The translations under genes were made by a program, and so were the position numbers. Positions 20,243 through 53,830 of a stretch of 64,000 nt of DNA are shown here, in pieces. The stretch is from Mayamaea pseudoterrestris (taxonomy: Eukaryota), in the NCBI GenBank assembly GCA_027923505.1, contig BROI01000009.1, positions 992,001 to 1,056,000 on the forward strand, written 5' to 3'. The notes beneath the pieces are model-generated. The model was not told the origin of the DNA. It saw only the letters and a list, made by a program, of their open reading frames with translations, and searched no databases. The number at the start of each line of letters is the position of its first letter. Position 1 is the stretch's first letter.

Positions 20243-22130
20243 ACACTAAAACCTGTTCAAATGCTCCTGGCACCATGGCTGGACCACTGGAGAGGGGTGG
20301 ATGAGATGCTCCATCTTGCTCCAATGCTTGGAGCTATGACATTCCTGCACCAATGAATGCAGCAAATTGTTCAAAATTGCTCATATTGCTCCAAATTGCT
20401 CAACCTCACTAAACCTTGTTCAAATGCTATGGGTGGACCACTGGAGAGGCCACCAGAGGGGCGGATGAGAGTCTCCATCTGGCTCCAATGCTTGGAGCTA
20501 TGACATTGCTGGACCCATGGAGGTGCAGCAAATTGCTCAAAATTGCTCATATTGCTCCAAATTGCTCAACCTCACTTCAACATGCTCAAAAGATCATGGC
20601 ACCATGGCTGGACCACTGGATGGCCGCTGGAGAGCCAGATGAGATGCTCCATCTGGCTCCAATGCTTGGAGCTATGACATTCCTGCACCAATGGAGGTGC
20701 AGCAAATTGCTCAAAATTGCTCATATTGCTCCAAATTGCTCAACCTCACCAAAACTGGTTCAAATGCTCCTGGAACCATGGCTGGACCACTGGAGAGGCC
20801 ACGGTTGAGATGCTCCATCTTGCTCCAATGCTTGGGGCTATGACATTGCTGGACTTATGGAGGTGCAGCAAATTGCTCAAAATTGCTCATATTGCTCCAA
20901 ATTGCTCAACGTCACTTCAACATGCTCAAAAGATCCTGGCACCATGGCTGGACCACTGGTGGGGCCGCTGGAGGGGCGGATGAGATGCTCCATCTTGCTC
21001 CAATGCTTGGAGCTATGACATTCCTGCACCAATGGAGGTGCAGCAAATTGCTCAAAATTGCTCATATTGCTCCAAATTGCTCAACCTCACTAAACCTTGT
21101 TCAAAAGATCCTGGCACCATGGCTGGACCACTGGAGGACAGCTGGAGGGCCAGATGAGATGCGCAATCTTGCTCAAATGCTTGGAGCTATGACATTGCTG
21201 GACCCATGCAGGTGCAGCAAATTGCTCAAAATTGCTCATATTGCTCCAAATTGCTCAACCTCACTAAAACTTGTTTAAAAGCTCCTGGAACCATGGCTGG
21301 ACCACTGGATGGCTGCTGAAAGGGGCGGATGAGATGCTCCATCTTGCTCCAATGCTTGGAGCTATGACATAGCTGGACCCATGGAGGTGCAGCAAATTGC
21401 TCAAAATTGCTCATATTGCTCAACATGCTCAAATGCTCCTGGCACCCTGGCTGGACCACTGGAGAGGCCGCTGGAGGGGCGGATAAGTTGCTCCATCTTG
21501 CTCCAAGGTTTGGGGCTATGACATTGCTGGACCCATGCAGGTGCAGCAAATGCTCAAAATTGCTCATATTGCACCAAATTGCTCGACCTCACTAAAACAG
21601 GTTAAAATGCTCCTGGCACCATGGGTGGACTGAACCACTGGAGAGGCCACCAGAGGAGCGGATGAGATGCTCCATCTTGCTCCAATGCTTGGAGGTATGA
21701 CATTCCCCCACCAATGGAGGTGCAGCAAATTGCTCAAAATTGCTCATATTGCTCCAAATTGCTCAACCTCACTAAAACAGGTTCAAGTGCTCCTGGCACC
21801 ATGGGTGGACCACTGGAGAGGCCACCAGAGGGGCGGATGAGATGCTCCATCTTGCTCCAATGCTTGGAGCTATGACATTCCTGCACCAATGGAGGTGCAG
21901 CAAATTGCTCAAAATTGCTCATATTGCTCCAAATTGCTCAACCTCACTTCAAAATGCTCAAATGCTCCTGGCACCATGGCTGGACCACTGGAGAACAACT
22001 GGAGGGGCAGATGAGATGCTCTTTCTTTCTCAAATGCTTGGGTTATGACATAGCTGGATCAATGGAGTGCAAAAAATTGCTCCGAACTGCTCAACCTCAC
22101 TTAAACTAGTTCAAATTCTCCTGGCACATG
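20243..22130. repeat. Satellite array 1, ~11 units of ~174-175 bp
   Basis: gagatgctccatc-like anchors at about 20303, 20467, 20641, 20807, 20982, 21156, 21331, 21485, 21664, 21839 and 22013. Confidence 0.95.
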
Positions 22131-22355
22131 GCCAGTCTCAACATACTCAAATGCACTGAAAATGTGTTCCGCGCGCCGACAGATAAAACATGTCGCACCA
22201 TCTTTCTTTCACGTCTTAGCGGTAATGGCGAGCGTCATCCATTTCCGACGATTGGCATCTTCTGCAAGTTTTGATGTGATCTTGCTCCTCCAATTCATTC
22301 ACAATTCACAAGCCATCATTCCATACTCATTGCATTCTAGCAGAAGCAGCGGACG

Positions 22356-25300
22356 ATGCAGTCTTCATGCTGCTTGCCAAAAAGTAGTCGTGCATTCTAC
22401 ACGAGCATGGCGGTACTCTGGCTGCTTTCCATGACGCGCCGACGAACCAACGCTTGGACGCTTGCCACTCAGTTCTCCAGCAGCCATTATCAGCAGTTAC
22501 ATCGCAGGAATTCTCGCAGTAGCAGCAGCCAAACGCTCTTGAGAAGCAGCAAGAGCAGCAGCAGTCCAGTCCTGTCCGCAGATGAAGCTACTACTAAAAC
22601 CGATATTACTACGCAGCAATCAGCAGCCGCAGCGACGCGCATCATTGTCGACGACGACTCCTTTGTCAAACCGGATCGAGACTTGCGCAAATATCGCATC
22701 ATTCAGCTACACAATCATCTAAAAGTCTTGCTGGTTTCGACGCAACTTTCGCCTGGAAGCGTTGGAACGGAAGCAGCGTCGGTTCACGTGCAAGCTGGAC
22801 ATTTCGACGACACGATTCCTGGTCTCGCGCACTTTCACGAACATTTGCTCTTTCTCGGCACGCACAAATATCCAAGCGAAGACGAGTATGAAGGTTTTCT
22901 GCAGACATTTGGAGGTTTCTCGAACGCATTCACCGACATGGAGGATACCAACTACTACTTTAGCGTCACGACGGAAGCTAACGGAAATCAAACATCGCCA
23001 GGATTACAAGGCGGCTTGGATCGACTGGCGCAATTCTTTATAGCACCGACCTTTGATCCGCAAATGGTGGATCGAGAAATCAGTGCCATTGACTCCGAAT
23101 ATCGAAACGCACTATCGAGTGACGCGTGGCGCAACTTTCAGTTGACAAAGAGTACATGTGATCCGTCGCATCCCTTTGCCAAGTTTGGTTGCGGCAATCG
23201 AGAAACACTCACCGCCAAGGGATTGGACTACTTGCTCCAAGAGCTGCATACATTTTGGAAAACGTACTATCAAACCTTCAATTTGAGACTGTCAGTAGTG
23301 GGACATGGATCGCTCGACGCTCTGCAAGCGACCGTCGAGGAAACCTTTGGAGCGTTGGCACCTTCCAGCGAAACGTCGCGACGCAACGGAGCATCACTAC
23401 CCAACCAACTGTTTCAGCGCGAGAATGCAGTCTACCAAACACCAGCCTATACACCAGCTCAACTTGGAACCATGCGAAGGATACTGCCACTCACGGAAAT
23501 GCGATCCATTAAACTGCTCTTTCCGACTCCACCACTGGATGATCCCGCATTGGATGCCAGCAAACCATACCGAACGTTGTCTCATGTACTTGGCCACGAA
23601 GCTCCCGGATCGCTGCATGCACTGTTGAATTCGCTTGGCTACATTCAGGGTCTATCGTCGGGCGTTGCCATTGACACGAGCGACTTTTCACTCTTTAGCT
23701 TGTCGCTCTCACTGACACCAAAGGGCATGCGCGAACAAGGAACTGTATTGGACTTGACGTTTCAGTGGATTGCCCTGCTGCGCAACATTGATGCAAGTAC
23801 TTTGAGTGACTATCACGACGAGTTAAGACAAATTTCAGAAATGAGTTTCAAGTTTCGCGAGAATGGCGATCCGACAGACTTTTGCTCGTCGGCGAGTGAA
23901 TTACTCTTTGACGACTTGGATGATCCGGGTCGATTGTTGGTGTCGCAGTCGGAAACAAGTGAGCTAAACATGGACGTTGTGACTGCCTTTATGGATCGGC
24001 TGCGACCAAGCAACTGCGTGATTCATGTGCATGACTCGGATCTGAACGAAACAATGAGCAGTGACGGCGACGGCGGTGAATGGATGCAGGAACCGTGGTA
24101 TGGTGCCAAGTATCGGGTCGAACGATTGGCTGCCGAACAAATGAAGGAGTGGGAATATCCAGAGCAATACGACTCGCGGCTGCAGCTTCCGAAACTGAAC
24201 GAATACATTCCTACTGATTTTTCGTTGCGGTGCGATGACAATGCTGACGAATCAAAATCACAGCAATCAACAGCGACAACAGAAACAACAGCGTCGGAGA
24301 AAGACTTGCAAACACCTCCAGTGCTACTGGTTAACACTCCTCAACTCCGACTATGGCACAAGATGGATCGATACTGGCGGGTGCCAAGAGCCTTTATCAG
24401 ACTGGCCCTACTATCGCCCAAAATTTACTCGACGCCACGAACCATGACGTACAGCCGCATTTTTCAGCGAGTCTTGAACGACGACTTGAACTCGTTTGTA
24501 TACGATGCATCCGTGGCCGGTTGCAACTACAAGGTGTCCAGCTCGCCGTTTGGCTACCGCATTTCCGTTCGAGGCTACTCGGAAAAGTTGCCATTTTTGC
24601 TTGATACGCTGACAACGAGGATACTCAGTTTGATTGAAGAAATGAAGCAAGGAGACCATGTACTTTGCAGCAAATTTGACAAGGCCAAGGAGAGTCTCTT
24701 ACGCGAGACCAAGAATTATCGATTGGATCCTCCGCACGAGGTGGCCGGATATAACTCGCGGTTGCTGCTGGAAGAAAATGTCTTTTACCTTGACAACTAC
24801 ATTGCAGAAATGGAAGGCAGTGATGCGGAGAAGGACCCTTTGAACGTGGCTGAATGTGCGACGGTTGTCGAGGAGTGCTTCAAGGGACGAGTGCAGTGCG
24901 AGGGATTGTGCATGGGTAATATCGACGAGAATGGCGCTCGCGTAGTCGCTAATGTATTGGACCGGCACTTTTTGACGATGACGCGCGGACTGAGCGAGGC
25001 AGAAATGCCGCGATTTCGCTCCATGAAGCTTCCAACTCGAGATGAAGCGGTACAAATATTTGACAAGTCTGTCACTGAGCGACCCTTTCCTGTCGTTTAC
25101 CAGGACGTCGCCGTTAGCGAGTCGGAGGAGAATAATGCAGTGGAGGTTGTGCTGCAGGCGGGGTGTGAGTTGGATTTGGGCTATCCGGGGATTGCAATTC
25201 TTGATCTTATCACCCACATGGCGTACAACAGTGCATACAGCGCGTTACGGACGAAAGAACAACTGGGTTACATTGTCAGCGCAGCAGCTCGAAAAACTGC

Positions 25301-25925
25301 CGGGGGAGCTTGGGGCATGTCGGTCATTGTACAAGGCTCGGTGGCATTGCCAGAGGTTCTTGAGCAACGCGTTGAAGCTTGGCTTGTTTCATTTCGTAAC
25401 GAACTGGAGGAGATGTCGGCCGAAGATATTGCTGATGAAGCATCTGGTGTCGTATCACAGCTCATGGAAAAAGAGCAGAAACTTTCCCAGGAGGTTGGTC
25501 GAATGTTTGGAGAAATATTGAGTACGGAGGGATTATCGAACCGCTTGCGTGAGCCTACCTTTGATCGACTCGAGCGGTTAGCTGCCGAATTGACTGTCGT
25601 CGTTGATGATGTTGAGGAAGACGTAGGGGTTACCGGTGGCGAACCGGGTGTCGTTAACAAACATGCAGCATCAAGTGGCCGCCGATTGACAGCAGCCCGA
25701 TTAAAGGAGCGCGTTTTGGATTTTTTTGACGAACATTTTATGCCGACTTCACCCAGCTTACGTGCAATGTCCGCACGTGTGTACAACAAGAATGCTCGCA
25801 ACGAATACGAAGCGCATTTGGGCAGATCTGGTGTACTATCCAGCTACTCGGACATGCGGCATTTCAAGCAATACATTAGTACTTGGCCAAATGTTCCTTA
25901 TGCGAAGGCCGATGTGAAGTTTTGA
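22356..25925 (+). CDS. M16A metallopeptidase (insulysin/pitrilysin-like) with an N-terminal targeting-like extension
   Basis: Inverted zinc motif GLAHFHEHLLFLGT, GGFSNAFT, LRTKEQLGYIV. Confidence 0.95.
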   Translation: MQSSCCLPKSSRAFYTSMAVLWLLSMTRRRTNAWTLATQFSSSHYQQLHRRNSRSSSSQTLLRSSKSSSSPVLSADEATTKTDITTQQSAAAATRIIVDDDSFVKPDRDLRKYRIIQLHNHLKVLLVSTQLSPGSVGTEAASVHVQAGHFDDTIPGLAHFHEHLLFLGTHKYPSEDEYEGFLQTFGGFSNAFTDMEDTNYYFSVTTEANGNQTSPGLQGGLDRLAQFFIAPTFDPQMVDREISAIDSEYRNALSSDAWRNFQLTKSTCDPSHPFAKFGCGNRETLTAKGLDYLLQELHTFWKTYYQTFNLRLSVVGHGSLDALQATVEETFGALAPSSETSRRNGASLPNQLFQRENAVYQTPAYTPAQLGTMRRILPLTEMRSIKLLFPTPPLDDPALDASKPYRTLSHVLGHEAPGSLHALLNSLGYIQGLSSGVAIDTSDFSLFSLSLSLTPKGMREQGTVLDLTFQWIALLRNIDASTLSDYHDELRQISEMSFKFRENGDPTDFCSSASELLFDDLDDPGRLLVSQSETSELNMDVVTAFMDRLRPSNCVIHVHDSDLNETMSSDGDGGEWMQEPWYGAKYRVERLAAEQMKEWEYPEQYDSRLQLPKLNEYIPTDFSLRCDDNADESKSQQSTATTETTASEKDLQTPPVLLVNTPQLRLWHKMDRYWRVPRAFIRLALLSPKIYSTPRTMTYSRIFQRVLNDDLNSFVYDASVAGCNYKVSSSPFGYRISVRGYSEKLPFLLDTLTTRILSLIEEMKQGDHVLCSKFDKAKESLLRETKNYRLDPPHEVAGYNSRLLLEENVFYLDNYIAEMEGSDAEKDPLNVAECATVVEECFKGRVQCEGLCMGNIDENGARVVANVLDRHFLTMTRGLSEAEMPRFRSMKLPTRDEAVQIFDKSVTERPFPVVYQDVAVSESEENNAVEVVLQAGCELDLGYPGIAILDLITHMAYNSAYSALRTKEQLGYIVSAAARKTAGGAWGMSVIVQGSVALPEVLEQRVEAWLVSFRNELEEMSAEDIADEASGVVSQLMEKEQKLSQEVGRMFGEILSTEGLSNRLREPTFDRLERLAAELTVVVDDVEEDVGVTGGEPGVVNKHAASSGRRLTAARLKERVLDFFDEHFMPTSPSLRAMSARVYNKNARNEYEAHLGRSGVLSSYSDMRHFKQYISTWPNVPYAKADVKF

Positions 25926-26103
25926 TGTCGCTGATACCGGACGTCGGCCAACGAAACCTTGTACAGCCAGCAAATGCTTTTAATAGAGAGATAAAGATAT
26001 ATTTAGCGTATAAGCCTACTAAGAAAGACCCCGATTTGTTTCATCGAAAAGTCACGGCGCATAGTTCGGCGTACCTCCAAAAATTCGTCGGCACACACCT
26101 TCA

Positions 26104-27837
26104 CTACCTGTGCCATGGCAACATACCGGTAACACTTTCGTCGCTATCTTCATCACTATAATTATCGCTATTCGATTCGCCGAACGTCTCAGAAACTCCA
26201 TGTACACGTCGTACTGACTCTAGCAGCGCAACCATTCGGCTCTCCTGTCGTCGTTCGTATCGCCGACGCTCACGTCGCTCCTCTTCCAACGCATGCAACC
26301 GCCGACGAAGAATTGCCAGCTCGTCACCTTCCATTGCATGTCGCTGCTGCATGGCATTATTTAAATGTACGAGCATGTCGATGGTTACCTGATGATCAAT
26401 CAGCAATGCTCGATGTTCAATCATGGAAGAATCAATGTCATGACTGCGTGCTTGGCTTGTTTGAGGCACCAGCAAGGTTGGAATGCATGCGTTCGAAACA
26501 TGCAGTTGCTGACTTGGATCATTGGAAGACCGATGGAGTGCCTCAAGCAATATGGACTGGCGAACCTCGAGCGGTGAATTATCCTGATAGAGAGGATTGT
26601 CTTGTGGTCGAAAGTACTGTGTGACTTGGTCGGGCAGCGATGACGGAATCCGTCGGGCATGTAAAAAACTAGAACCCTCAATAAATTCTGCACGCTCCCA
26701 TGCAATCGCCCAAAGATTGCTCGGTATTGCAGCAAGATGCACTGACATGAAATAATCTGGGCCAATACGGGCCTTGCGAATCTTGATTGACCTGCAAGTA
26801 TTGTTGCGGATTAAGATGGACGAGCACCAAAAATGCTTCCATGACTCCGTGCTGAAAGTGGCATGGGTGATTTCTAGACCGCTGGAAAGCGTCGACCACT
26901 TGTCCAAAAAATCGTCCACTGCTTGAATGTCTGATAAGAAATCACTGCAGTCGCGCATGACAATCGTAGCACTGCCAACCGTAAATGGTACAGCTGACCC
27001 AACGAGATTGGCTTCCGTCATAATTACAGAGTTTGATTTTGTCTTTTGCAAAAACTTGCGAGGAATTTCATTACTGAAACACCAAACATCACCGAATGGA
27101 AACTCCTCGAGATGATCCCACAAGTCGTCCGATGGTTGAAAGCGATATAGAGTTAGCATGGCGCCATGCTTCCAACTACAATGATAAAACATTGTTTGCA
27201 AATCTTGACGCGAAAGCAAAACATCTTTGGACTCAAGTGCATTATCGACTTTTGCATTGTACGTGAGAGATATTTGCCGCTCATATTCTCCAGGCTTGAA
27301 TATTGGAAGACTGGTTTGAAATCGCAAAACGTCTCGAATGGTTCCTTGAACTTGCAATCGATCCGTTTCTTGCAGAGGCATGCAGCTCTTTGGAACAAAG
27401 ATGCGACACAGAGCGCAGACATCTCGAGGCTCTGATTCGTCCGTGTACTGCGCGGCTCCACGACACTCAGGTCCAGCCTGCACGAACGCTTCACCAGTTT
27501 GACTGCTGCTGACTTGAATGGTTTGCATGAATTCAACGTCGGCAAAGACTGCATAAACATGAGGCGAAAAGCGAACAATGAAACCAGGACTTTGTATAAA
27601 ATCATACAAGACTTCTGATGGAATGCCATTGAGCTGCCAGAGATGCGTTCCAGTGACAAGTTGGTATATAGAAATGTCAAGCAAACGAGGTTCATAGGCA
27701 TTTGGTTCCTCGTCATGCTCCTCGTCAGCGTCGTCGTCATCATCCAAACGATGCGTGACGATCAATTCTTCGCCCGGAAGTCGTTTCAAGACGAGAAAGG
27801 GGCGAATCGCATCCTTGAGGGTCGTCGTCGTGGTCAT
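26104..27837 (-). CDS. Hypothetical protein, 577 aa, with a C-terminal charged/coiled-coil segment
   Basis: Long ATG-initiated ORF filling the gap between neighbours. No family recognised. Confidence 0.7.
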   Translation of the reverse strand: MTTTTTLKDAIRPFLVLKRLPGEELIVTHRLDDDDDADEEHDEEPNAYEPRLLDISIYQLVTGTHLWQLNGIPSEVLYDFIQSPGFIVRFSPHVYAVFADVEFMQTIQVSSSQTGEAFVQAGPECRGAAQYTDESEPRDVCALCRIFVPKSCMPLQETDRLQVQGTIRDVLRFQTSLPIFKPGEYERQISLTYNAKVDNALESKDVLLSRQDLQTMFYHCSWKHGAMLTLYRFQPSDDLWDHLEEFPFGDVWCFSNEIPRKFLQKTKSNSVIMTEANLVGSAVPFTVGSATIVMRDCSDFLSDIQAVDDFLDKWSTLSSGLEITHATFSTESWKHFWCSSILIRNNTCRSIKIRKARIGPDYFMSVHLAAIPSNLWAIAWERAEFIEGSSFLHARRIPSSLPDQVTQYFRPQDNPLYQDNSPLEVRQSILLEALHRSSNDPSQQLHVSNACIPTLLVPQTSQARSHDIDSSMIEHRALLIDHQVTIDMLVHLNNAMQQRHAMEGDELAILRRRLHALEEERRERRRYERRQESRMVALLESVRRVHGVSETFGESNSDNYSDEDSDESVTGMLPWHR

Positions 27838-28078
27838 GCTAGAGCTGGTTTACCATTGATTGAGTGATGGAGAAATGAATAGGAACGAGAGGATGCATCG
27901 AAGCAGTTGTGTAACGGTACGACGTTTTTTTTGTTTTACAGCTTGTCGGTCCGGCACTCAGCGCTCACCCCACCATTCGACCATGACGAATGAGCCTCTC
28001 CGTTTCGATGAAGCATCGACGAGGCTACATGTCATAGCTCTGGAAACGTATACATATTGAATAACCCTAAAAATCATC

Positions 28079-29068
28079 ATGTCATTTTACAAATCATCAC
28101 TGATACGCAAGCAATCGCCGTTGCGAATCTCGAAATGGAATTTGATTCTGCTTTGCGTTGCATCGCTTGGAGTCGGCATGCTTTGGGCCTACCAAATCTT
28201 TTATACAAGTTACTACAAGGCATGTCAAGAATCACTACTCGAGCAGGAGGTTTCATTGATGAGTAGCTGCAAGTCAAAGTACGAAAGCAATAATAGTATT
28301 GAAGGTAGTGGAAAGCAGAAGCAGCAAGTCGCAGCAGATTGCTCGGCTGCATCCGCTTCCATTTCCAAGGCTCTACAGGAATCCGAGCAGGCTCTCTTTC
28401 AGTTACAAGGCGCCGTACAACGACGATCACTATCGGAATGCATGCATAAATATGGACAGCCTCCCTACATTGTGGAAGTGTGGTTCAGCGTCGACGGAGA
28501 CGAGCATGTGCTGCCATTGGAGATTTCGCAATTGGAATCCATGCCCTTTACTACCGAAACGTTCTTGGAGCTGGTCGAGTATGGACTATACACGGAGACG
28601 TTTATTGGTCCGCAGCAGCAGCAGAGCGGAGCAAGTAATGATCGAAACATTATTGGCGGCAATCCGTCCGACGCTTCCACTCGCATTCGCACCCGCCTGT
28701 TGCGAAGCTACGCGGAACTGGGGTTTGGAACATCGGCCACGCCCTTTATATTGGACGAAACGACGACTGGAAACAGTCGATCGTCCTCGCGCAAGCCATG
28801 TAGTGAGCAATATAGCTTTGGGTTTGCGTCCAGTAACGCCGAGTTTACCATTTTTGCCAATGCCGACGAATCCAGCAATCATCATGCAGCAAGGCCAGTG
28901 CAATGCATTGGACGCGTGCTACTTCCTCAAGGACAGCGAGCCATGAATGTACTGCAGACGCTGCGTGGACCAGACGCGGCAAGGATTATTGAGGTGCGAA
29001 TACGTGGACTGGAGAATGAAGATGAGCAGCAGGAACAGCAAGAGCAACGAGAAGGAGGCGAGCTATAG
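28079..29068 (+). CDS. Type II membrane protein with coiled stem and degenerate cyclophilin-like domain
   Basis: N-terminal TM helix, then YGQPPYIVEV...LESMPFTTETFLELVEYGLY...CIGRVL, resembling diatom cyclophilin-like proteins. Catalytic motifs are not evident. Confidence 0.65.
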   Translation: MSFYKSSLIRKQSPLRISKWNLILLCVASLGVGMLWAYQIFYTSYYKACQESLLEQEVSLMSSCKSKYESNNSIEGSGKQKQQVAADCSAASASISKALQESEQALFQLQGAVQRRSLSECMHKYGQPPYIVEVWFSVDGDEHVLPLEISQLESMPFTTETFLELVEYGLYTETFIGPQQQQSGASNDRNIIGGNPSDASTRIRTRLLRSYAELGFGTSATPFILDETTTGNSRSSSRKPCSEQYSFGFASSNAEFTIFANADESSNHHAARPVQCIGRVLLPQGQRAMNVLQTLRGPDAARIIEVRIRGLENEDEQQEQQEQREGGEL

Positions 29069-29489
29069 ACAGTATGTAGTTGATTGTGGAGTATACCGTA
29101 GGGAGACGCGCGATTGATGGTCATAGGCTTGACAAGGACGACAGTGCGCATGAAGAGCGCGCGTGACGAAAAAAGCGAAACAACGTCAGCTCGTCGTTAC
29201 TGTACTTCCCGAATAGTATCTAATGATAGCTACAACGAGATTTTCAACTAAATGTTACATTTGCGCTCATTGCATTACGGTAGGTCAAGCCCCCCAATAA
29301 CTGGCAGTCGAACAATAGCATTGTCCCACACGGAGTATCGTTCCGGTACTCCAAAGTGCGCGATCTTGTGGTCAACGTCGTCAACCACCATCAAGTGCTT
29401 CTGTTCGCTTCGACCTTCTGCGAGTCAAAACATCAAGCATTTACATGCCTGCTCTCATTTCGTCTCTGCCTTTTTACTTTTATTCCCTC

Positions 29490-30908: not shown

Positions 30909-31378
30909 AAGCGCACCATGAGGAGGTGTACGTGACGTGTTGACAAACTTGCGTTGAATTACTATTTACGTGCGTGTTGAATGTTAAATGGATGCATATA
31001 AGCTACTATTTCGTTTTTGTTACGTTGAGTTGGTAGTTTATAGTTCAATGCGATACACATTGTACTTGTACAACCAAGTAGGCACCTTCATCCTCTTTTG
31101 ACGAGCTTTATACTGGGTGACAGCTGGACTTTTTCTTACTAGGCCAATCGGACGGATGGAGGTTCTTGCAGCTTCTTGGATAGCTGCAGACTACTCGCAT
31201 ATCTAAAGAGTAATCAATGTACTCGTGACACCAAATTAGTTAGCAGTTTTTACGCCGTCTAGCACTGAGTCAATGGTCATTGTCGGAGGCCGACGGACTC
31301 CCTCACAGATTGGTCTGTAAACAGGAAACAGAGGTAGTCACCTCGGAGACAAAGCCAGGAAAAACGGCGTACATGTCA

Positions 31379-36257: not shown

Positions 36258-36590
36258 CAGTTTTCATTGGCACTCGTTTCATACTTATGCCTTTATGACG
36301 TAGTTTTCACTGGCACTCGTTTCGTACTTATGCCTTAATGACGCAGTTTTCACTGGCAGTCGTTTCATAATATTGCCTAATGACGCAGTTCTCACTGGCA
36401 CCCGTTTCACAGTATTGCCTTGTGAGTTAGTTTTCACTGGCACTTGTTTCATTGATTTACTTGCTGACGCAGTTTTCACTGGCACTCGTTTCGTACTATA
36501 GCCTCGTGACGCAGTTTTCACTGGCACCCGTTTCATACTATTGCCTAATGACGCAGTTTTCACTGGCACTCGTTTCCTACTATTGCCTGC
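36258..36590. repeat. Minisatellite, 8 units of 42-43 bp
   Basis: Core gttttcactggcactcgtttc at about 36260, 36303, 36346, 36388, 36430, 36472, 36514 and 36556. Confidence 0.95.
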
Positions 36591-42995: not shown

Positions 42996-43426
42996 AGTCT
43001 GTAATCTACTTTACTAGGCTTGCAGGGTATGTAAATTGAGCGTTAGCGCTGTGCTGTGATAGGACCTATTCAAGCGAGTTTTAAGCATTGCCAGGTAGCT
43101 AGGCGTCTCACTGGTTTTAAGAAGACGTTTTGACCGTTGGGGCTTCCATTCCGAGCGCGCCAGAGGCGCTGCCGATCACCATGATGGCAGGCCTACCGAT
43201 ACATTTGCTGCCGTCTAAATTTTCAAGAAGAGGCTTCTACATCATAATTGGCTCCAAATTTTTGACGCAAATCTATCAGCTGAAGCAGAAGACGATAAGA
43301 GTTTCATGGGACAGATACTTGATAAAGCAGCCGACACCATCACAGTTTTGACGCGACGCGACGACACTACACACTACACTACACAGCAATTAACGCCATC
43401 ATCCTAGCAGCCTGCACTGAATCGTC

Positions 43427-46126
43427 ATGGGAATCCAGGGGCTTCTGCAGGGTCTCAAGTTTGTTACGACTCCAGGAAATATTACTGACTATAAGGGACA
43501 AGCCGTCTGCGTCGATGGAAGCTCCTGGCTGCACAAATCGGTCTACAGCATTGCCGAACACTACGTCGAATGTATCGAACAAAAAGGCCTCGACCGACGC
43601 TGCATCAACGTTGCATCTTCCTATATCAAAGCTAGATGCGACGAGCTACTCAATTTTGCGCAGGTCCGTCGGATATACTTTGTCATGGACGGAAAGCGAT
43701 GTCCTCTCAAAGCTGGAACGAATGCCGATCGAGACAATCGTCGCGAGGACAATTTAAAGGAGGCTCGTCGACTGAAGCAGCGTGGAGACAATGACGGAGC
43801 CTATGAAAAGTACAAGGCTTGCATAAAAATTACCGACCGACTCACTAAGGAAGTTGCTGCAAGCTTGGCAAGGGCGTTTCCGGATGGTCGGGTCGAGTTG
43901 GTGCATTCGCCGTACGAGGCGGATCCGCAGCTTGTCAAGCTTTGCATCGATGGACACTGCAGCGCCATCATAACCGAAGACTCGGATGTTCTCGTCTACT
44001 GCGCAGCTGCTCGTCAGATGACTCCCGTATTGTTCAAGCTTGATCGAAAGAATGGACAATGCCAAGTCGTTTCCATGGCTTGGCTGCTCTGCCCAAACAA
44101 CAACCTCTCTCTTCGAGCGCAACCTACTGACCCAAACAAAAAGAAAAGGACCAACGGAATCGAAGCAACACTGGAAGCTTTTGCAGCGCGAGAAGCTCGT
44201 GAACCTGGACTCGGTGTTCGTCTCTTTGTGCAAGCCTGCATACTTTCCGGCTGCGACTATGCCGTAAATGAGCTCGAGGGCGTTGGCCTCGTAAATGCAT
44301 TCAAAGCAATTCGCAGCGCCATTCATCGAAGCGATGATGACCGTTTTCGTCACGCCATGACTCTTTTGCCTTCAAAGGCATGTAAAAGCATTGACAAGAT
44401 TGAGTACGAGGAGCTCTTGGCCAAGAGTGAAGCAGTATTTTATCATCATCCAGTCATGGAATCCACGGGACGAGTCGTCTATCTGGTAGATTCTGCTGAG
44501 CATGGATCTCATTTTCCGGTTTTGGAGCGCTTTGGCGGGGATATTTTATTCATTGGGGATGTACTGCCTTCAAACGAGTTGCTGCAGGATAGCACTAACC
44601 TGCCGCCAGTTTCTGAAATTGTAGTCAAGCACAAGTCAAAGAGCGGCCGCGAGACACGTCGCGCTGCCAAAGTTTCATACGATGAGGGCTTGCGACGCAC
44701 CAAGGAGGTCGCTCCGATGCTGAATCCGTACCTTAACGCGAAGAAGCGAGGACAGGATGGCAGTCAAAAGCAAACTGATGCTGCCGCGCAACTTGCTGGA
44801 AAGCGCAACCCCTTCGCTTCGTTCGTGGTTAAAGGCAAGGAAAACGAGAAATGGGATAACGAGGTAGCGCGGCGTAGTAATCACAAGCTCAAGTTTGTTG
44901 AGTCGGCTGCTAAGGGAATCGGGGTCAAAGCGTTTCTAGACAAATTGCTCCCTCCTCCGCATCAAGAGCAAAAACCATTGCCTCGAGAAAGAGCTACAAT
45001 TCATGAATCACAAAGTGAACGCTCCACCAGGCATCATCAACATGATTACGATCATGAACTGCCGAATAGCGACAAGTATTCGGAAGTGGGAACAAAGCGG
45101 CAACGTTTGTCTGAACCTGCTTGCCAACAGCTCCACGATTACGGGTCACGCCAGCAGCCCATAGATTTGGACAACATGCTCGAGCAAGATGCGCATTCCC
45201 ACCAAGCAGGTTTGTATGAACAAATTAATGCGTTCGAAAAATCATCGTGTGACTCGGAATACATTTCGCAGGAGCCGGCTCATCCATCATTCAGGCGATA
45301 CAACGATGAGCGTCACGGCCAATCCTATCCTGCACACAAGGCTCCTTCTACTTTTTACGATCTATGCGGATCGGAGACTGTCACAGATCAATCGTCGCGG
45401 ACTATGAATCGTCCCTTAAGTCATGCCGATACAACACTCAGCTATCGCTCGTCCGTGCATTCGTCTGTCAGACGTGATGACCTTGACGATGTTTCTGTGG
45501 TGCGACGCCAGGGCATACTGCCACTGCAGCCTAGCGAAGGATTGCTTGACCCTCATGCGCAACATACACAATCGTCGTCGAGCAACGTGCCGCCAATAAA
45601 CGCCGCCGACAACCAAGATCCATTTGATGTCCAGGATCGCTCGTTTTCTTTAAGTCAAGACGTTCCGCTATTCAATCGTCACATCCATGATATGGCGGGG
45701 ACATGCCTTGCGGACACAAATGAGTGCCCTCGTCGGATAACAAACGAGTTTGCAAAGTCCCTGTATCCTCCTCCTCCTCTGGCCATGCCAGCAGCATCAC
45801 CTCGAAAGCAGCGTCCCTCTTTCGCGTATGATGAGTGGTTGGAATCTCCTCAAACCAAGGACCAGATCATGAATGCACGAGAACTCCAAGCCGACGATAT
45901 TCTCAGCTCGCCCGAATCATTCAGTATGCGTCCCAGCAATAGTACGAATCCTGACAGGCCTTTAATCATGGCGACGAATACGATCGGCCCAGCCAAGACT
46001 TTTCGAAATCGCTTTCAGAGCACGAATCCGCAAGGCGCAAGGAAAGGCTTGATTCCCGTCCGAGCCAAGCAACGCAATGGACCGCTGCAAGGGTCGCTGT
46101 CGAGGTATTTCTCTCGACGAAATTGA
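43427..46126 (+). CDS. EXO1: Exonuclease 1 (XPG/Rad2 family)
   Basis: MGIQGLL, VDGSSWLHK, VMDG, SPYEADPQL, IITEDSD, ILSGCDY, then a long disordered C-terminus. Confidence 0.95.
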   Translation: MGIQGLLQGLKFVTTPGNITDYKGQAVCVDGSSWLHKSVYSIAEHYVECIEQKGLDRRCINVASSYIKARCDELLNFAQVRRIYFVMDGKRCPLKAGTNADRDNRREDNLKEARRLKQRGDNDGAYEKYKACIKITDRLTKEVAASLARAFPDGRVELVHSPYEADPQLVKLCIDGHCSAIITEDSDVLVYCAAARQMTPVLFKLDRKNGQCQVVSMAWLLCPNNNLSLRAQPTDPNKKKRTNGIEATLEAFAAREAREPGLGVRLFVQACILSGCDYAVNELEGVGLVNAFKAIRSAIHRSDDDRFRHAMTLLPSKACKSIDKIEYEELLAKSEAVFYHHPVMESTGRVVYLVDSAEHGSHFPVLERFGGDILFIGDVLPSNELLQDSTNLPPVSEIVVKHKSKSGRETRRAAKVSYDEGLRRTKEVAPMLNPYLNAKKRGQDGSQKQTDAAAQLAGKRNPFASFVVKGKENEKWDNEVARRSNHKLKFVESAAKGIGVKAFLDKLLPPPHQEQKPLPRERATIHESQSERSTRHHQHDYDHELPNSDKYSEVGTKRQRLSEPACQQLHDYGSRQQPIDLDNMLEQDAHSHQAGLYEQINAFEKSSCDSEYISQEPAHPSFRRYNDERHGQSYPAHKAPSTFYDLCGSETVTDQSSRTMNRPLSHADTTLSYRSSVHSSVRRDDLDDVSVVRRQGILPLQPSEGLLDPHAQHTQSSSSNVPPINAADNQDPFDVQDRSFSLSQDVPLFNRHIHDMAGTCLADTNECPRRITNEFAKSLYPPPPLAMPAASPRKQRPSFAYDEWLESPQTKDQIMNARELQADDILSSPESFSMRPSNSTNPDRPLIMATNTIGPAKTFRNRFQSTNPQGARKGLIPVRAKQRNGPLQGSLSRYFSRRN

Positions 46127-46285
46127 TCTATTGTGCATACGAGTACAGAAGCGTCATTACATATAGCCATTCGTTAAAGTTAAAAATCTACTGCTGTAGT
46201 TAAAAATTCTACCGTAGAGAAGCGATGTGCCAATGCACCAACTCGGCGAAGACCCCTAATAATCCGGTGCGTTCACGTCAATTAT

Positions 46286-47780
46286 TTACATGGCCGACCG
46301 CCGGCGATTCATTCGTCGACGAGGCGGCCCATTGCGATGCGCCTCATCAATCTTCTTTTGATTCTCGAGAAACTCATGGGCCTCCTCTCCCGACAAAACC
46401 ATCTGATCGACAACCGTGTTAAACGATTGGCAATTGTTGCACTGCACTCCTAAAAAGTGCCAGGCGCGATTCCTCTCCTGTTGCTCACAGTCATTGCAGG
46501 TAATGTTCACTACGCGACAAAGCTCCGGCGGCACTGGCTGTAGCGCAACACCTGCCGCCATGGCACTCCAGGTTGGCAGCATTCTTTCCCGAGTTTCGGC
46601 CGTCTTTTTGCACACGGGGCATCGACTATCATGCGCCGCAAGTTGTCGAAAGCAGTCCCAGTGAATGGCGTGTCCACAGGGCATTTCGTGCGAGGCGCTC
46701 CGAGAACTAAAGAGATACTCCTGACAAACCGGGCAATTGCTTCGATATTTGCCAGCCTTACAGTTATGGTTATCATACAGAGTCTTGTCAATGCACATTC
46801 CGCACTCGTGGCAATGCTGAAAGTTGTGAGCGCCGCCAACCCGGCAGAATCCACAGTCGGCGCAATGATAAGGAGCTTCCTCGTCGGACATCCAAAGGTT
46901 GCAGACATTGCAGTGATAAGCACCGAATGGAGTCCCGCAGCCGACGCATTGGTTGCTGTAGTTTAGTGACAAAGAGAACGACTTACGTGAGGAATGGCTG
47001 TAAAAGTGCATATATTCTCTACGAAACACAAGATACTTACGTCTTACTGGACTGTCTCGTAAAACATTCTCGACAAATGACTTCGCGAATGGCGAATCGG
47101 TCAATCTCATGGTGCGTATCCTCCTGTTGCTGCACTTGATGCATGGTTGTAAAGCTCGACGGCAGCGAGGCTGATCGATGAAAGCGACGTCCTCCATTGT
47201 TGATTTTCGGCGGCAAGTTGGGACAGTCGTCGTGACATATGCGACAGCCAAAGGCCATGCCACAGCATGGACTGATAATAGTGCATTGGCGCTCGTAGTG
47301 CGAGCAGTAGGGCCGCGTTATCTCGGTGCGACGAGTTTGCTCGTTGCAAATGGTGAAGCCGTCGTCCGTCATGTGGTTGTCTCCGTCAAACTGCTCCAAT
47401 CCGTCATCTTCGCCATATCCATAGACATTCGTTGGCGGTGACTCATCTCCGTATCCATATGGATTGCTTCCGTAGCTTCTCGTACTTTCGCCTCCGCTGA
47501 CACTCGACTGTGCGCTCGTGACTCCACTTTGGTAGCTGTGTACACTCGCACCTCCGTTACTCAGCGACGCCCTTCGACCATCCATCAAGTGCTGAATGGA
47601 TAAACGCTTCTCCATGGGTGTCAATTGAACATCGCTCATGATTGCCTTGATACTTGCGCGTCGCTCCCTTTGCTCCGTCTGTGACATTGATCCTCGTCGC
47701 GAAATGGATCCTCTTCGCGTAGGAGGAGCCATCTCCTCGTAGCCCATGTCCATTTCTTCCAAGGCAGCGTCGTCCGGCAT
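46286..47780 (-). CDS. CHY zinc finger / RING-H2 protein (Pirh2/RCHY1-like), join(47041..47780,46286..46955)
   Basis: CSHYERQC..ISPCCG...CRICHD; YHCADCGFCRVGG; RING CPVCQEYLF...CGHAIHWDC...CPVC. The 85-bp GTAAGT...TACAG intron keeps the frame (470 codons). Confidence 0.93.
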
Positions 47781-47992
47781 GATTGCTATCAGGGTGCTGT
47801 ACAAAGGAAAGTTATGTTGTTGAATTGTGTGAAGGTTCTTCCAATCTTCACTCCTATGGCCATAACTTGCCGAAACTCCGAGCGTGATTGTCACGCAGTG
47901 CATAGAGTCATTCTCGGTCATTTTTTCAGTCGCCTTTTAAAACCCGCTTTACCCTGGGCAACGACATCCAGGCTGCCCTACCGGTTTCGCAG

Positions 47993-50900
47993 TCGCAGAA
48001 CTAGGAGACTAGGTACTCGTAAAGATGAATGCATTACACATTCAACATCTGGAAGCAATGCCTGTCAACTGCCAGCTATCAATCGATACCTCTCCAGCTG
48101 TTGGAGTCGGTCATGGCAGCCAGCTACTGGGGACAAGCCTAGGGACTAGGAATTCTGGCAGTCCCTGTCTCAGAACACGGAGACTAGATGGGCTGATAAT
48201 GACTGCATTGCGCTTTCTATATCATGACACAACACCTGTCAACTGCCAGTTATCAATTGATATTACTCTGGCGTTTGCAGTGGGTCGTGGCAGCCAGCTA
48301 CTGGGGACAAGCCTAGGGACAAGAAACTTGGGCAGTCCCTGTTGCAGAACTTGGAAACTAAATGGGCAATTGATGACTGCATTGCACTTTCTATTTCATG
48401 AAACAATGTCTTTCAACTGCCAGCTATCAATTGATACCTCTGTGGCTGTGGGAGTGGATCATAGCAGCCTGCTACTGTGGACAAGCCTAGGTGCATGAAA
48501 TTTGGGCAGGCCCTGTCGCAGAACTTGGAGAGTAGATGGGCCATCAATCACTGCATGGCACTTTCTACATCATGAAACAATGCCTATCAACTGCCATCTA
48601 TTGGTTTACATCTCTCTGGATGTTGGGGTGGGTCATGGCAGCCAGCTACTATGGGCCAGCCTGGGGGCACGAAATTTGGGCAGTCCCTGTCGCAGAACTT
48701 GGAGACTAGATGGGTAATTGATGACTGCATTGCACTTTCTACATCATGAAACAATACCAGCCAACCGCCAGCTACAGTATCAGTTTACATCTCTCTGGCT
48801 GTGGGAATGGGTTTTGTCAGCCTACTATTGTGGACAAGCCAAGGGGCACAAAATTATGGCAGTCCCTGTCACAGAACTTGGCAATTATATGGGCTATCAA
48901 TGACTGCATTGCACTTTCTACATCATGAAACATTGCCTATCAGCTGCCAGCTATCAATTGATCCCTCTCTGGCGTTTGGAGTGGGTCATGGCAGCCAGCT
49001 ACTGGGGACAAGCGTAGGGACAAGAAATTTAAACAGTCCCTGTCGCAGAACTTGGAGACTAGATGAGTAATTGATGACTGCATTGCACATACTATTTCAT
49101 GAAACAATGCCTGTCAACTGCAGGTATCTATTGATACCTCTCTGGCTGTTGGAGTGGGTAATGGCAGCCAGCTACTGGGGACAAGCCTAGGGTCGCGAAA
49201 TTCTGGCAGTCCCTGTCACAGAACATGGAGACTAGATGGGCCATTGATGACTGCACTGCACATTCAACATCTGGAAGCAATGCCTGTCAACTGCCATCTA
49301 TGAGTTTACACCCCTCTGGCTGTGTGAGTGGGTTTTGTCAGCCTGCTACTGTGGACAAGCCAAGGGGCACAAAATTTTGGTAGACCCTGTCACAGAACTT
49401 GGAGCCTAGATCAGCTAGCAATGACTGCATTGCACTTTCTACATCATAAAACAATGCCTGCCAACTGCCAGCTATCAATTGATACCTCTCTGGCTGTGGG
49501 AGTGGGGTATGGCAGCCAGCTACCGGTACTGGGGATAAGCCAGGAACACAAATTCTGGCAGTCCCTGTCACAGAACTTGGAGAGTAGATGGGCCATCAAT
49601 CACTGCATTACACTTTCTACATCATGAAACAATTCCTATCAACTGCCATTTATTGGTTTACATCTCTCTGGATGTTGGAGTGGGTCATAGCAGGCAACTA
49701 CTATTAGCAAGCCTGGGGGCACGAAATTGGGGAAGTCCCTGTCGCAGAACTTGGAGACTGGATGGGCAATTGATGACTGCATTGCACTTTCTACATCATG
49801 AAACAATGCCTGTCAACTGCCAGCTATCAACTGATACCTCTCTGGCTGTTAAAATGGGTTATGGCAGCCAGCTACTGTGGACAAGCCTGGGGGCACAAAA
49901 TTTGGGCAGTCCCTGTCGCAGAACATGGAGACGAGATGGGTAATTGATGACTGCATTGCGCTTTCTATATCATGACACAACACCTGTCAACTGCCAGCTA
50001 TCAATTGATATTACTCTGGCGTTTGCAGTGGGTCATGGCAGCCAGCTACGGGGACAAGCCTAGGGCCAAGAAATTTGGGCAATCCCTGTCGCAGAACTTG
50101 GAAACTGAATGGGCAATTTATGACTGCATTGCACTTTCTATTTCATGAAACAATGTCTATCAACTGCCAGCTATCAATTGTTACCTCTCTGGCTGTGGGA
50201 GTGGATCATGACAGCCTGCTACTGTGGACATGCCTAGGTGCACGAAATTTCGTAGAACATGGAGACTAGATGGGTAATTGATGACTGCATTGCGCTTTCT
50301 ATATCATGACACAACACCTATCAACTGCCAGCTATCAATTGATATTACTCTGGCGTTTGCAGTGGGTCGTGGCAGCCAGCTACGGGGGACAAGCCTAGGG
50401 ACAAGAAATTTGGGCAGTCCCTGTCACAGAACTTGGAGACTGGATGGGCAATTTATGACTGCATTGCACTTTCTACATCATGAAACAATGCCTGTCAACT
50501 GCCAGCTATCAACTGATACCTCTCTGGCTGTTAAAATGGGTTATGGCAGCCAGCTACTGTGGACAAGCCTGGGGGCACAAAATTTGGGCAGTCCCTGTTG
50601 CAGAACATGGAGACGAGATGGGTAATTGATGACTGCATTGCGCTTTCTTTATCATGACACAACACCTGTCAACTGCCAGCTATCAATTGATATTACTCTG
50701 GCGTTTGCAGTGGGTCATGGCAGCCAGCTACGGGGACAAGCCTAGGGCCAAGAAATTTGGGCAGTCCCTGTCGCAGAACTTGGAAACTGAATGGGCAATT
50801 TATGACTGCATTGCACTTTCTATTTCATGAAACAATGTCTATCAACTGCCAGCTATCAATTGATACCTCTCTGGCTGTGGGAATGGATCATGACAGCCTG

Positions 50901-53830
50901 CTACTGTGGACAAGCCTAGGTGCACGAAATCTCGCAGAACATGGAGACTAGATGGGTAATTGATGGCTGCATTGCGCTTTCTATATCATGACACAACACC
51001 TGTCAACTGCCAGCTATCAATTGATATTACTCTGGCATTTGCAGTGGGTCGTGGCAGCCAGCTACGGGGGACAAGCCTAGGGACAAGAAATTTGGGCAGT
51101 CCCTGTCACAGAACTTGGAGACTGGATGGGCAATTGATGACTGCATTGCACTTTCTACATCATGAAACAATTCCTATCAACTGCAATTTATTGGTTTACA
51201 TCTCTCTGGATGTTGGAGTGGGTCATAGCAGGCAGCTACTATGAGCAAGCCTGGGGGCACGAAATTTGGGCAGTCCCTGTCGCAGAACTTGGAGACTGGA
51301 TGGGCAATTGATGACTGCATTGCACTTTCTACACCAAGAAACAATGCCTGTCAACTGCCAGCTATCAACTGATACCTCTCTGGCTGTTAAAATGGGTTAT
51401 GGCAGCCAGCTACTGTGGACAAGCCTGGGGGCACAAAATTTGGGCAGTCCCTGTCGCAGAACATGGAGACGAGATGGGTAATTGATGACTGCATTGCGCT
51501 TTCTATATCATGACACAACACCTGTGAACTGCCAGCTATCAATTGATATTACTCTGGCGTTTGCAGTGGGTCATGGCAGCCAGCTACTGGGGACAAGCCT
51601 AGGGACAAGAAATTCTGGCAGTCCCTGTCGCAGAACATGGAGACTAGATGGGCTAGCAATGACTGCATGGCACTTTCTACATCATGAAACAATGCCTATC
51701 AACTGCCATCTATTGGTTTACATCTCTCTGGATTTTGGAGTGGGTCATGGCAGCCAGCTACTATGGGCCAGCCTTGGGGCACGAAATTCTGGCAGTCCCT
51801 GTCACAGAACTTGGAGGCTAGATGGGCAATTGATGACTGCATTGCACATTCAACATCTGAAAGCAATGCCTGTCAACTGCCAGCTATCAATTGATATCTC
51901 TCTGACGTTTGGAGTGGGTACCGGCAGCCAGCTACTGGGGAAAAGCCTAGGGACACGAAATTCTGGCAGTCCCTGTCGCAGAACTTGGAGACTAGATGGG
52001 CAATTGATGACTGCATGGCACTTTCTACATCATGAAACAATGCCTATCAACTGCCAGCTATCAATTGATCCCTCTCTGGCATTTGGAGTGTGTCATGGCA
52101 GCCAGCTACTGGGGACAAGCCTAGGGGCACAAAATTCTGGCAGTCCCTGTCGCAGAACTTGGAAACTGAATGGGCAATTTATGACGATACCTCTCTGGCA
52201 TTTGGAGTGGGCCGTGGCAGCCAGCTACTGGGGACAAGCCTAAGGGCAAGAAATTTGGGCAGTCCCTGTCGCAGAACATGGAGACTAGATGGCCTAGCAA
52301 TGACTGCATTGCACTTTCTATTTCATGAAACAATGCCTGTCAACTGCCAGCTATCAACTGGTACCTCTCTGGCTGTTACAATGGGTTATGGAAGCCAGCT
52401 ACAGTGGACAAGCCTGGGGGCACAAAATTCTGGCAGTCCCTGTCGCAGAACTTGGAGACTAGATGGGTAATTGATGATTGCATTGCACTCTCTGCATAAT
52501 GAGACAGTGCCTATCAACTGCCATCTATCGGTTTACATCTCTCTGGATGTTGGAGTGGGTCATGGCAGCCAGCTACTATGGGCAAGCCTAGGGGCAAGAA
52601 ATTCTGGCAGTCCCTGTCGCAGAACTTGGAGACTAGATGGGTAATTGATGACTGCATTGCACTTTCTACATCATGAAACAATACCAGCCGCCTGTCAGCT
52701 ATCATTTTACTTCTCTGGCTGTTGGAGTGGGTTATGGCAGCCAGCTACTGGGGACAAGCCTAGGGACCAGGAATTCTGGCAGTTCCTGTCGCAGAACATG
52801 GAGCAATGACTGCATTGCGCTTTCTACATCATGAAACAATGCCTGTCAACTGCCAGCTATCAATTGATACCACTCTGGCGTTTGGAGTGGGTTGTTGCAG
52901 CCAGCTACTGGGGACAAGCTTTGGGAAACAAAATTCTGGCAGTCCCTGTCACAGAACATGGAGAGTAGATGGGCTATCAATGACTGCATTGCACTTTCTA
53001 CATCATGAGACAGTGCCTATCAACTGCCATTTATCAGTTTACATCACTCTGGATGTTGGAGTGGGTCATGGCAGCCAGCTACTATTGCAAGCCTAGGGGC
53101 AAGAAATTTGGGCAGTCCCTGTTGTAGAATATGGAGACTAGATGGGCAATCGATGACTGCATTGCACTTTCTACATCATGAAACAATGCTTATCAACTGC
53201 CATTTATTGGTTTACATCTCTCTGGCGTTTGGAGTGGTTCATGGCAGCCAGCTACTGAGGACAAGCCTAGGGGCAAGAAATTTGGGCAGTCCGTGTCGCA
53301 GAGCATGGAGACTAGACGGGCTAGCAATGACTGCATTGCACTTTCTTTTTCATTAAACAATGCCTGTCAACTGCCAGCTATCATTTGATATCACTCTGGC
53401 ATTTGGAGTGGGTCGTGGCAGCCAGCTACTGGGGACAAGCCTAGGGACACATAATTCTGATAGTCCCTGTCACAGAACATGGAGACTAGATAGGCTATCA
53501 ATGACTGCATTGCACTTTCTACATCATGAAACAACACCTATCAACTGCCAGCTTTCAATTGATCCCTCTCTGGCTGTGGGAGTGGATCATAGCAGGCAGC
53601 TACTGTGGACAAGCTTAGGGACACAAAATTCTGACAGTCCCTGTCACAGAACATAGAGACTAGATGGGCTATCAATGACTGCATTGCACTATCTACATCA
53701 TGAAACAATGCTTGTCGACTGCCAGCTATCAATAATTGATCCCTCTCTGGCATTTGGAGTGGGCCGTGGCAGCCAGCTACTGGGGACAAGCCTAGGGGCA
53801 CGAAATTCTGGCGGTCCCCGTCGCAGAACA
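47993..53830. repeat. Satellite array 2, ~34 units of mostly 174 bp (~5.8 kb), with higher-order structure
   Basis: cagtccctgt anchors at 48159, 48333, 48507, 48681 ... 51271, 51445, 51619, 51793, 51967, 52141 ... 53461, 53635 and about 53812. Confidence 0.97.

Follow-up and report, generated by a model that had tools for sequence, protein, structure and literature searches.

The 64,000-nucleotide stretch analysed here (hereafter the window; contig BROI01000009.1, positions 992,001 to 1,056,000, of the Mayamaea pseudoterrestris assembly GCA_027923505.1) contains two tandem-repeat arrays, array 1 and array 2, built of satellites that we call Sat175 and Sat174, respectively. The two satellites are unrelated in sequence, strongly depleted in CpG and set among ordinary genes; Sat174 is dispersed over the genome, and array 1 lies within a truncated transposable element carrying a third satellite, Sat144, as its own central repeats. 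Among the matches to the RPA1 of this genome, the organisms that can be named are diatoms, Fistulifera solaris giving the best match. The assembly searched comprises 30.6 Mb in 41 contigs, labelled G000:C1, C2 and so on (the window belongs to C9); the DNA that was read amounts to ~2.4% of the genome and was picked around satellites. The relevant features of the window are listed below, the satellites and the remains of the element before their neighbours.

20244..22132, plus strand: array 1 (Sat175), ~11 units of 154-179 bp with ~89% pairwise identity and an internal 10-bp subrepeat
47992..53829, plus strand: array 2 (Sat174), ~33.5 units with ~83% pairwise identity
19700..20027, minus strand: Sat144 central repeats of a HINE-like element, in units of 144-147 bp; the right module is gone here
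20028..20242, minus strand: inner part of the HINE-like left module, ~70% identical to intact copies (20039-20242)
22155..22181, minus strand: outer fragment of the HINE-like left module, 25/27 identical (E 2.9e-5), with the terminal ~55 bases absent
22341..25925, plus strand: open reading frame (ORF) of an M16 (insulinase-type) peptidase, recognised by Pfam and bordering array 1
46286..47936, minus strand: CHY/RING zinc-finger gene, with array 2 ~210 bp upstream of its likely start
53989..55059, minus strand: aldo/keto reductase ORF, its 3' end ~160 bp from array 2
19528..19662, plus strand: local duplication of an intergenic spacer (19528-19588 resembles 22192-22253; 19585-19662 resembles 13302-13382)
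13399..19467, plus strand: Copia-type retrotransposon with identical 241-bp long terminal repeats (LTRs), a 5-bp target duplication and an 1829-aa ORF
56490..62682, minus strand: second Copia-type element with identical 322-bp LTRs, without a counterpart in the C22 copy of this region

According to Tandem Repeats Finder (TRF), array 1 spans 20244-22093 with 10.9 copies at a period of 175, and array 2 spans 48024-53830 with 24.0 + 9.5 copies at a period of 174; alignment to the consensus extends them to 20244-22132 and 47992-53829. The interval between units is exactly 174 bp in 22 of 32 cases in array 2. Six of the ten intervals in array 1 fall at 173-175 bp, with the mode at 175 (three units), the others being 154, 164, 166 and 179. 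Array 2 holds a recent four-unit (682-bp) duplication at 97-99% identity, and one and the same 10-base word of the repeat marks both its start and its end. The ratio of observed to expected CpG is 0.12 in array 1 and 0.22 in array 2, compared to 0.98-1.11 in the rest of the window, where the lowest flanking 1850-bp window reaches 0.87. In both arrays TpG and CpA are raised and GC stays at 48-49% (0.49 and 0.48), and none of their 100-bp windows (0/48 and 0/115) is at <=32% GC, the value by which we define low GC. Pfam-recognised genes lie ~160-230 bp from the arrays. An earlier note on this DNA had described the two arrays at these positions, their strong CpG depletion and their closeness to ordinary genes, all of which our results bear out. 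Its shared modal unit of about 174 bp is retained for the modes (174 and 175), but not as a fixed period.

The earlier note had also found no alignment between the arrays, and this too holds when both strands are compared by several methods. The best blastn match has an E-value of 4.6, the local score is reached by 289 of 1000 dinucleotide shuffles and the rotated global score by 24 of 60, and an nhmmer profile of each array has no match in the other at E <= 10. Homology of arrays 1 and 2, which none of these methods detects, is thus rejected. Comparison of all pairs of the satellite families introduced below revealed clear kinship only between Sat176 and a 146-bp derivative of it, and between the halves of two dimers; the likeness of Sat174 to Sat183 (1/150 shuffles) and a few pairs at 0-3/150 are within expectation for many comparisons.

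Both arrays consist of head-to-tail, non-coding repeats of a stable monomer, with no Rfam match in the window, and Sat174 forms a multi-locus family homogenised at the level of the array, as is typical of satellites. An alternative, named already in the earlier note, is that both arrays are decayed genes for proteins with 58-residue repeats. The Sat174 consensus does have one fully open frame, and a stop-free stretch of 253 codons runs through 51482-52243 inside array 2. However, such a frame is also present in 526 of 2000 shuffled 174-mers and is interrupted by a stop in 14 of 31 array 2 units, and substitutions in array 2 are spread evenly over codon positions (210/184/188), with 108 synonymous versus 393 non-synonymous codons. 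In addition, the modal unit length of array 1 (175 bp) is not divisible by three, and neither array has a Pfam match. These observations largely refute a coding origin, which we regard as scarcely credible.

Directly beside array 1, at 19700-20027, there is a 144-147 bp repeat family that was absent from the earlier note. This is Sat144, and in the window it is followed by the left module of its carrier element, the inner part of which ends where array 1 begins, and a fragment of the outer part of which lies just past the far end of the array. Since left-module sequence is found on both sides of array 1, the array is situated inside the HINE-like element, of which both termini have been lost in the window copy. 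Contigs of the public read run X1 contain both junctions of array 1 at approximately flank depth, and contigs of X2, a run from another study, contain the right junction; one of the two runs may be the source of the assembly. Summed contig depth, which is not a copy number, reaches high values on Sat144 but only modest ones on array 1. A contig joint 19726 -> 22155 was set aside, because its short side has only 24 letters and may derive from other copies of the element. The Sat175 family is of low copy number: apart from array 1, the genome search placed it only at G000:C6:681.5-682.8 kb (16 motif matches, all on C6 or C9), where eight intervals of 138-166 bp, ~153 bp typically, adjoin another satellite, Sat169, and are not set in a HINE. 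The duplication of the intergenic spacer around the island is old, one copy holding the array 1 island and the other the Copia element 13399-19467. The latter is young, and contigs of both X1 and X2 skip it at about flank depth. Just past the window, at G000:C9:1058.9-1070.4 kb, two more ORFs of ~1830 aa with a tandem pair of 241-bp repeats between them look like head-to-tail copies of the same element.

Sat144 has 197 matches in the genome. In the fetched stretches, some of which were picked for carrying the right end, the Sat144 element is represented by 13 complete copies, 1.1-2.6 kb in length, and its left and right ends were seen 14 and 18 times, respectively; the right end has 16 exact matches genome-wide. 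On the left, a sub-terminal repeat is followed by an adjacent inverted copy, forming a hairpin, and then by a left module of ~350-400 bp; on the right, a module is closed off by the complementary sub-terminal repeat together with a small stem-loop. The copies thus display the arrangement that defines a HINE, that is, a 5' sub-terminal inverted repeat (subTIR) with an inverted repeat, and a 3' subTIR followed by a stem-loop. The central repeats begin and end at fixed phases of the unit, ~92-95 to 129-134 across complete copies and 92 to 131 in the window. None of 13 flank pairs shows a visible target duplication, and a T|T target would agree with the ends, although no empty site was seen that would separate target Ts from element Ts. 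This layout matches the definition of Helitron2/Helentron elements (PMC13085455) and closely resembles Cg_HINE, a non-autonomous Helentron of the oyster Crassostrea gigas, described with a 5' subTIR and inverted repeat, a 3' subTIR and stem-loop, and no target duplication (PMC7492417). Judging from its sequence layout, the Sat144 carrier is a non-autonomous Helitron2/Helentron-type (HINE-like) element, in a truncated copy of which array 1 is nested. Of the options put forward in the earlier note, arrays borne by transposable elements are therefore borne out for Sat144, the family whose element hosts array 1 and is known from its ends and complete copies. Four loci encoding the Helitron Rep protein (RepHel) were found in the genome. 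At one of them (G000:C12:207.9-220.3 kb), an 1823-aa RepHel ORF, partly CpG-depleted, lies ~1.3 kb from a composite block of 346/146/174-bp satellites; at another, on C5, an MBD-domain ORF (G000:C5:433.5-434.4 kb) is located directly upstream of the RepHel ORF.

Sat174 is spread in a different manner. A genome search with a two-unit query gave at least 235 matches (37 of 46 candidates were scored and 150 matches listed), and a separate count of an exact motif gave 238. The family occupies at least 25 loci on at least 18 contigs among the matches listed, and scaling the motif count by the share of motif-bearing units yields an estimated total of ~80-100 kb; no match was found in metagenome contigs or plasmids. 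Some arrays were copied together with their flanks. Thus, window positions 42.1-64 kb have a duplicate at 90-96% identity at G000:C22:48464-~77400, either a diverged allele or a segmental duplication, in which the counterpart of array 2 has the same ends but measures ~9 kb, a Copia insertion flanked by a 5-bp target duplication having interrupted it. Array 2 units are closest to this copy (0.92, versus 0.79-0.84 elsewhere). At G000:C29:10.07-10.32 kb, a Sat174 array has 273 bp of right flank in common with array 2 (window 53835-54107; 80% identity). This common flank takes in the 3' end of the aldo/keto reductase ORF and hints at an old duplication in which the array was copied along. Within that ORF beside array 2, at 54200-54550, the number of CpG dips to 1-4 per 100 bp, possibly through spreading of methylation. 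In contrast to Sat144, comparison of 39 Sat174 flanks gave only pairs and triples, mostly traced to duplications or LTRs, and no common terminal modules; hence, no carrier is shown for array 2. Positions 47916 and 53983, on either side of array 2, hold a 10-bp inverted pair, which was considered as a set of carrier ends and rejected, because it does not recur as termini at other loci. As another route, integration of circles was tested on 21 of 24 Sat174 arrays, three being dropped as duplicates or cut by LTRs. Seven of the 21 end 0-13 bases from a whole number of units (p 0.0009), or six of 20 (p 0.004) if the window array is left out, where the band was set after array 2 had been seen and BLAST-defined ends may bias the outcome. 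The same test on Sat169 gave no excess (2/12, p 0.26). The whole-unit phase of Sat174 would fit insertion of circular multimers but is only suggestive.

To place the unit lengths of the two arrays in context, we ran TRF on 735 kb, consisting of the window and stretches around matches to Sat174, Sat144, Sat169 and RepHel. There were 21 tandem-repeat clusters, seven of them present at two or more loci, with modal periods of 144, 169, 174, 175 (153-175), 176, 181 and 342-354 bp; all seven have a CpG ratio of <=0.28 (range 0.16-0.28 or lower). Two of the longer units are old dimers, the one of 348 bp with halves of ~174 bp and a single-locus one of 371 bp with halves of ~185 bp; six of the 14 single-locus clusters fall in the same length band. 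Unrelated families thus cluster at nucleosome-like lengths, four of them near 174-176 bp. Four multi-locus families had been found by adjacency, with period ignored, and all are in the band, which under a log-uniform null has p = 0.265 for each and ~0.005 jointly, for a band picked after the data had been seen. A fixed period of 174 bp, in turn, is contradicted by Sat175 units of 138-166 bp on C6, by the dominance of Sat169 and by the range of 144-185 bp over families. Accordingly, the period histogram that the earlier note had proposed as a check, run on these 735 kb, upholds multi-locus families at 144-181 bp or as a dimer of ~174 and shows no fixed 174, and the agreement of the two window arrays (174/175) is probably one draw from a 144-185 bp range. 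Sat169 is the most abundant satellite, with 2758 exact motif matches versus 238 for Sat174; after scaling it makes up ~0.84-1.0 Mb (~3% of the assembly), approximately ten times as much as Sat174. In arrays of 342-354 bp units (e.g. L059:1519-3919) each half of the dimer contains a near-perfect palindrome of 27-29 bp, and Sat169 contains one of 19 bp. A separate repeated unit, ~400-600 bp in size, directly borders Sat169 arrays at loci unrelated to one another (L074:3815-4442; L046:7783-8170; L049:5470-5761). Elsewhere in the window, at 36258-36588, a 42-bp (14-codon) repeat of 7.8 copies with normal CpG overlaps an unannotated minus-strand ORF.

Within a single island, unrelated families directly abut one another at varied phases, and Copia LTRs recur inside and beside the arrays. 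From both features we infer that the islands are tolerated landing sites which grow by accretion: existing islands would tolerate or attract new arrays and retroelements, giving rise to composite blocks. A subtelomeric position was considered as a general rule and rejected, as several arrays are located mid-contig and only one telomere tract was found. As for the loss of CpG, in array 2 the C-to-T rate at residual consensus CpG, of which there are only two sites, is 0.19, compared to 0.04-0.08 at other C. On C2, a DNA-methylase domain is encoded upstream of an SNF2 domain, which is the layout of DNMT5, and in the diatom Phaeodactylum loss of DNMT5a is reported to remove CG methylation from transposons (PMC9998398). 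The confinement of CpG loss to repeats, the DNMT5 layout and the role of Phaeodactylum DNMT5a together suggest long-term 5-methylcytosine and heterochromatin, in which case the CpG deficit would stem from prolonged deamination of methylcytosine written by a DNMT5-like enzyme.

Taken together, these results lead us to consider it likely that the two arrays are unrelated non-coding satellites drawn from a dispersed library of at least seven families, which probably form small islands of CG-methylated heterochromatin, have probably spread by rolling-circle elements and segmental duplication, and possibly by circular DNA, and have units probably biased towards nucleosome length; no centromere role is predicted at either locus. 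Spread is shown for Sat144, by the ends of its element, and for some Sat174 copies, by duplication with flanks, circular DNA being a candidate for the rest; Sat174 and Sat175 would move without fixed ends of their own. Nucleosome-sized units might be favoured either because amplification or excision proceeds in nucleosome steps or because such units pack stably. The dispersed system of CpG-depleted islands proposed in the earlier note, with unrelated families at nucleosome-like lengths, is thereby upheld by at least 25 Sat174 loci and seven multi-locus families. Several observations weigh against our interpretation. The 735-kb sample, built around matches to three families, does not amount to an unbiased histogram of the genome; of its 21 clusters, 14 are single-locus, eight of these lying outside the length band (69-111 and 381-467 bp). 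A 10-bp WW/SS periodicity is nominal in one of 12 consensus units and was not reproduced in a second consensus of the same array; the sequence periodicity expected of nucleosome positioning is thus lacking, and the term 'nucleosome-phased' used in the earlier note finds no support in the sequence. Our literature search found no nucleosome repeat length for a diatom, and PMC13344279, in its available text, merely assumes 190 bp. CpG loss also affects a repeat that is not a satellite, namely, a mucin-like exon-intron repeat at G000:C14:98.6-100.2 kb (ratio 0.07), which adjoins a long Sat144 array (~102-111 kb). Finally, array 2 has no demonstrated carrier and the Sat175 family no carrier ends of its own, while the surroundings of the four RepHel loci, searched over 20-26 kb at each, gave no HINE end motifs, which leaves the mobilising enzyme unlinked.

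The same facts can be arranged differently. All families, including Sat174 and Sat175, might have arisen as central repeats of HINE-like elements whose ends were lost later, the unit length then being the step of rolling-circle replication or template slippage rather than a product of chromatin. This holds for Sat144, array 1 does lie inside such an element, and in the oyster all 13 clusters of 138-181 bp repeats are reported to be HINE-borne (PMC7492417). Moreover, ~85 bp of the Sat174 unit show a weak likeness to the HINE right module (1/300 mononucleotide shuffles; profile E 0.9-6.6), but this likeness was selected post hoc and falls short of significance in the profile comparison. Common modules are missing beside Sat174, Sat348 and Sat181, and the flanks of Sat169 form only small clusters; Sat175 on C6 adjoins Sat169 and is not in a HINE. 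In complete Sat144 elements, furthermore, CpG is depleted in the repeats but not in the first 200 bp (ratio 0.84-1.54), which points to a mark placed on the repeats themselves. We therefore find a common HINE origin very unlikely.

Two other alternatives give the arrays a role in the centromere. In one, the chromosomes would be holocentric or polycentric on the basis of repeats: the arrays, above all those of Sat169, with Sat174 and Sat175 as minor or relic components, would be CENH3-bearing units whose length is selected to phase CENH3 nucleosomes. The genome encodes a divergent H3 with a longer loop 1 (G000:C2:130.3 kb), a putative CENH3 which, by its features, we take to be CENH3-like. Many arrays are strewn along a chromosome, with at least seven Sat169 clusters and three Sat174 loci on C1 (3 Mb) and at least five islands on C6 (1.24 Mb), and no low-GC peak is seen in the fetched stretches, which were picked around satellites and cover ~2.4% of the genome (at most three low-GC windows per 3 kb). 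The Tyba satellite of Rhynchospora, likewise, has 172-bp units, is interspersed in euchromatin and is carried by Helitrons (10.64898/2026.01.17.700053). On the other hand, Sat175 has only two loci, array sizes range from 0.4 to >10 kb and spacing is irregular. Phaeodactylum centromeres are described as low in GC and without repeats (10.1101/096016), and predicted centromeres of Fistulifera as without highly repeated elements (10.1101/2021.11.10.468027); neither array in the window has the low GC and absence of repeats of the Phaeodactylum type. For the comparably dispersed arrays of oyster and Tribolium, the available texts assign no centromere role (PMC7492417; PMC11610590), and our literature search found no holocentric diatom. 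We regard this alternative as unlikely, and similarly unlikely its evolutionary extension, in which a diatom swapped the low-GC, repeat-free centromere for scattered satellite units, with unrelated, Helitron-seeded satellites repeatedly selected at the length of the CENH3 nucleosome. In the other alternative, the chromosome would have one regional centromere or pericentromere, at array 2 or the C9/C22 locus that it marks, and array 1 would be a pericentromeric satellite. Consistent with this, C2, C3, C9, C13, C17, C20 and C22 each have a single array of Sat174, 5-10 kb in size, Copia elements are concentrated within and near the arrays, and array 2 has persisted, at a different length, in the C22 duplicate. 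However, among the matches listed (the first 100, in contig order to C13) the Sat174 motif is found on none of C4, C5, C7, C8, C10 and C11, whereas C6 and C1 carry several arrays; as there are many islands on one contig, most cannot be single centromeres. Array 2 also has intact genes within ~200 bp, surroundings of normal CpG, a GC content of 48-49% and none of 115 windows low in GC, and far larger blocks of Sat169 exist elsewhere. A regional centromere at array 2 is, in our estimation, quite unlikely.

A dispersed and partly HINE-borne satellite library, as we interpret the islands, appears to be of a kind already known from oyster and Tribolium. The Cg_HINE arrays of C. gigas comprise many unrelated families of 138-181 bp, with 51% of monomers at 160-180 bp, in short and sometimes successive arrays among genes (PMC7492417). 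Unlike in the oyster, only Sat144 has modules in M. pseudoterrestris, Sat174 and Sat175 being devoid of ends of their own, and the islands are composites of unrelated families, at ~48-57% GC and strongly CpG-depleted, in a 30-Mb diatom genome. The Cast satellites of Tribolium castaneum, too, form arrays in gene-rich DNA with irregular ends, and their spread is attributed to transposons and insertion of circular DNA; circular forms were shown there by experiment, whereas here there is a suggestive whole-unit end phase in 7/21 Sat174 arrays (PMC11610590). Tyba resembles the present satellites in unit length, in arrays interspersed along chromosomes and in its Helitron-type carrier, but is one family with a stable array size and proven CENH3 binding, compared to many families of variable array size here (10.64898/2026.01.17.700053). 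The centromeres of Phaeodactylum and Fistulifera, from the same lineage, are also gene-free stretches of a few kb in gene-dense DNA (10.1101/096016; 10.1101/2021.11.10.468027), yet they are low in GC and free of satellites, while the arrays described here are wholly tandem repeats at genome-average GC. The Phaeodactylum DNMT5 system is matched by the methylase and SNF2 domains, and the CpG decay fits its CG context, although its described targets are transposons and the words 'satellite' and 'tandem' are absent from the main text (PMC9998398). Convergence of unrelated satellites on 140-180 bp is itself a known pattern (PMC7492417; 10.64898/2026.09.17.752431): in a centromere atlas, 128 of 263 centromeric families are at 100-200 bp, and the word 'diatom' is absent from its available text (10.64898/2026.09.17.752431). 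Our literature search, which extended neither to subscription papers nor to bioRxiv supplements, found no satellite library or satellitome in a diatom; a description of these repeats could exist in a genome paper or in the supplement to one.

The window contributes the element that carries Sat144, with array 1 nested inside it, and the finding that the unit length of array 1 is not fixed at 174 bp. It also documents, for a stramenopile, a HINE-like element that contains central repeats. A 30-Mb diatom with one dominant 169-bp satellite and at least six further nucleosome-sized families would be a compact system in which to ask why satellites favour nucleosome length. Were the centromeres built of scattered satellites after all, they would represent convergence with Rhynchospora in a stramenopile. 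Whether the islands are inert heterochromatin or a new type of centromere for diatoms bears on the design of diatom episomes.

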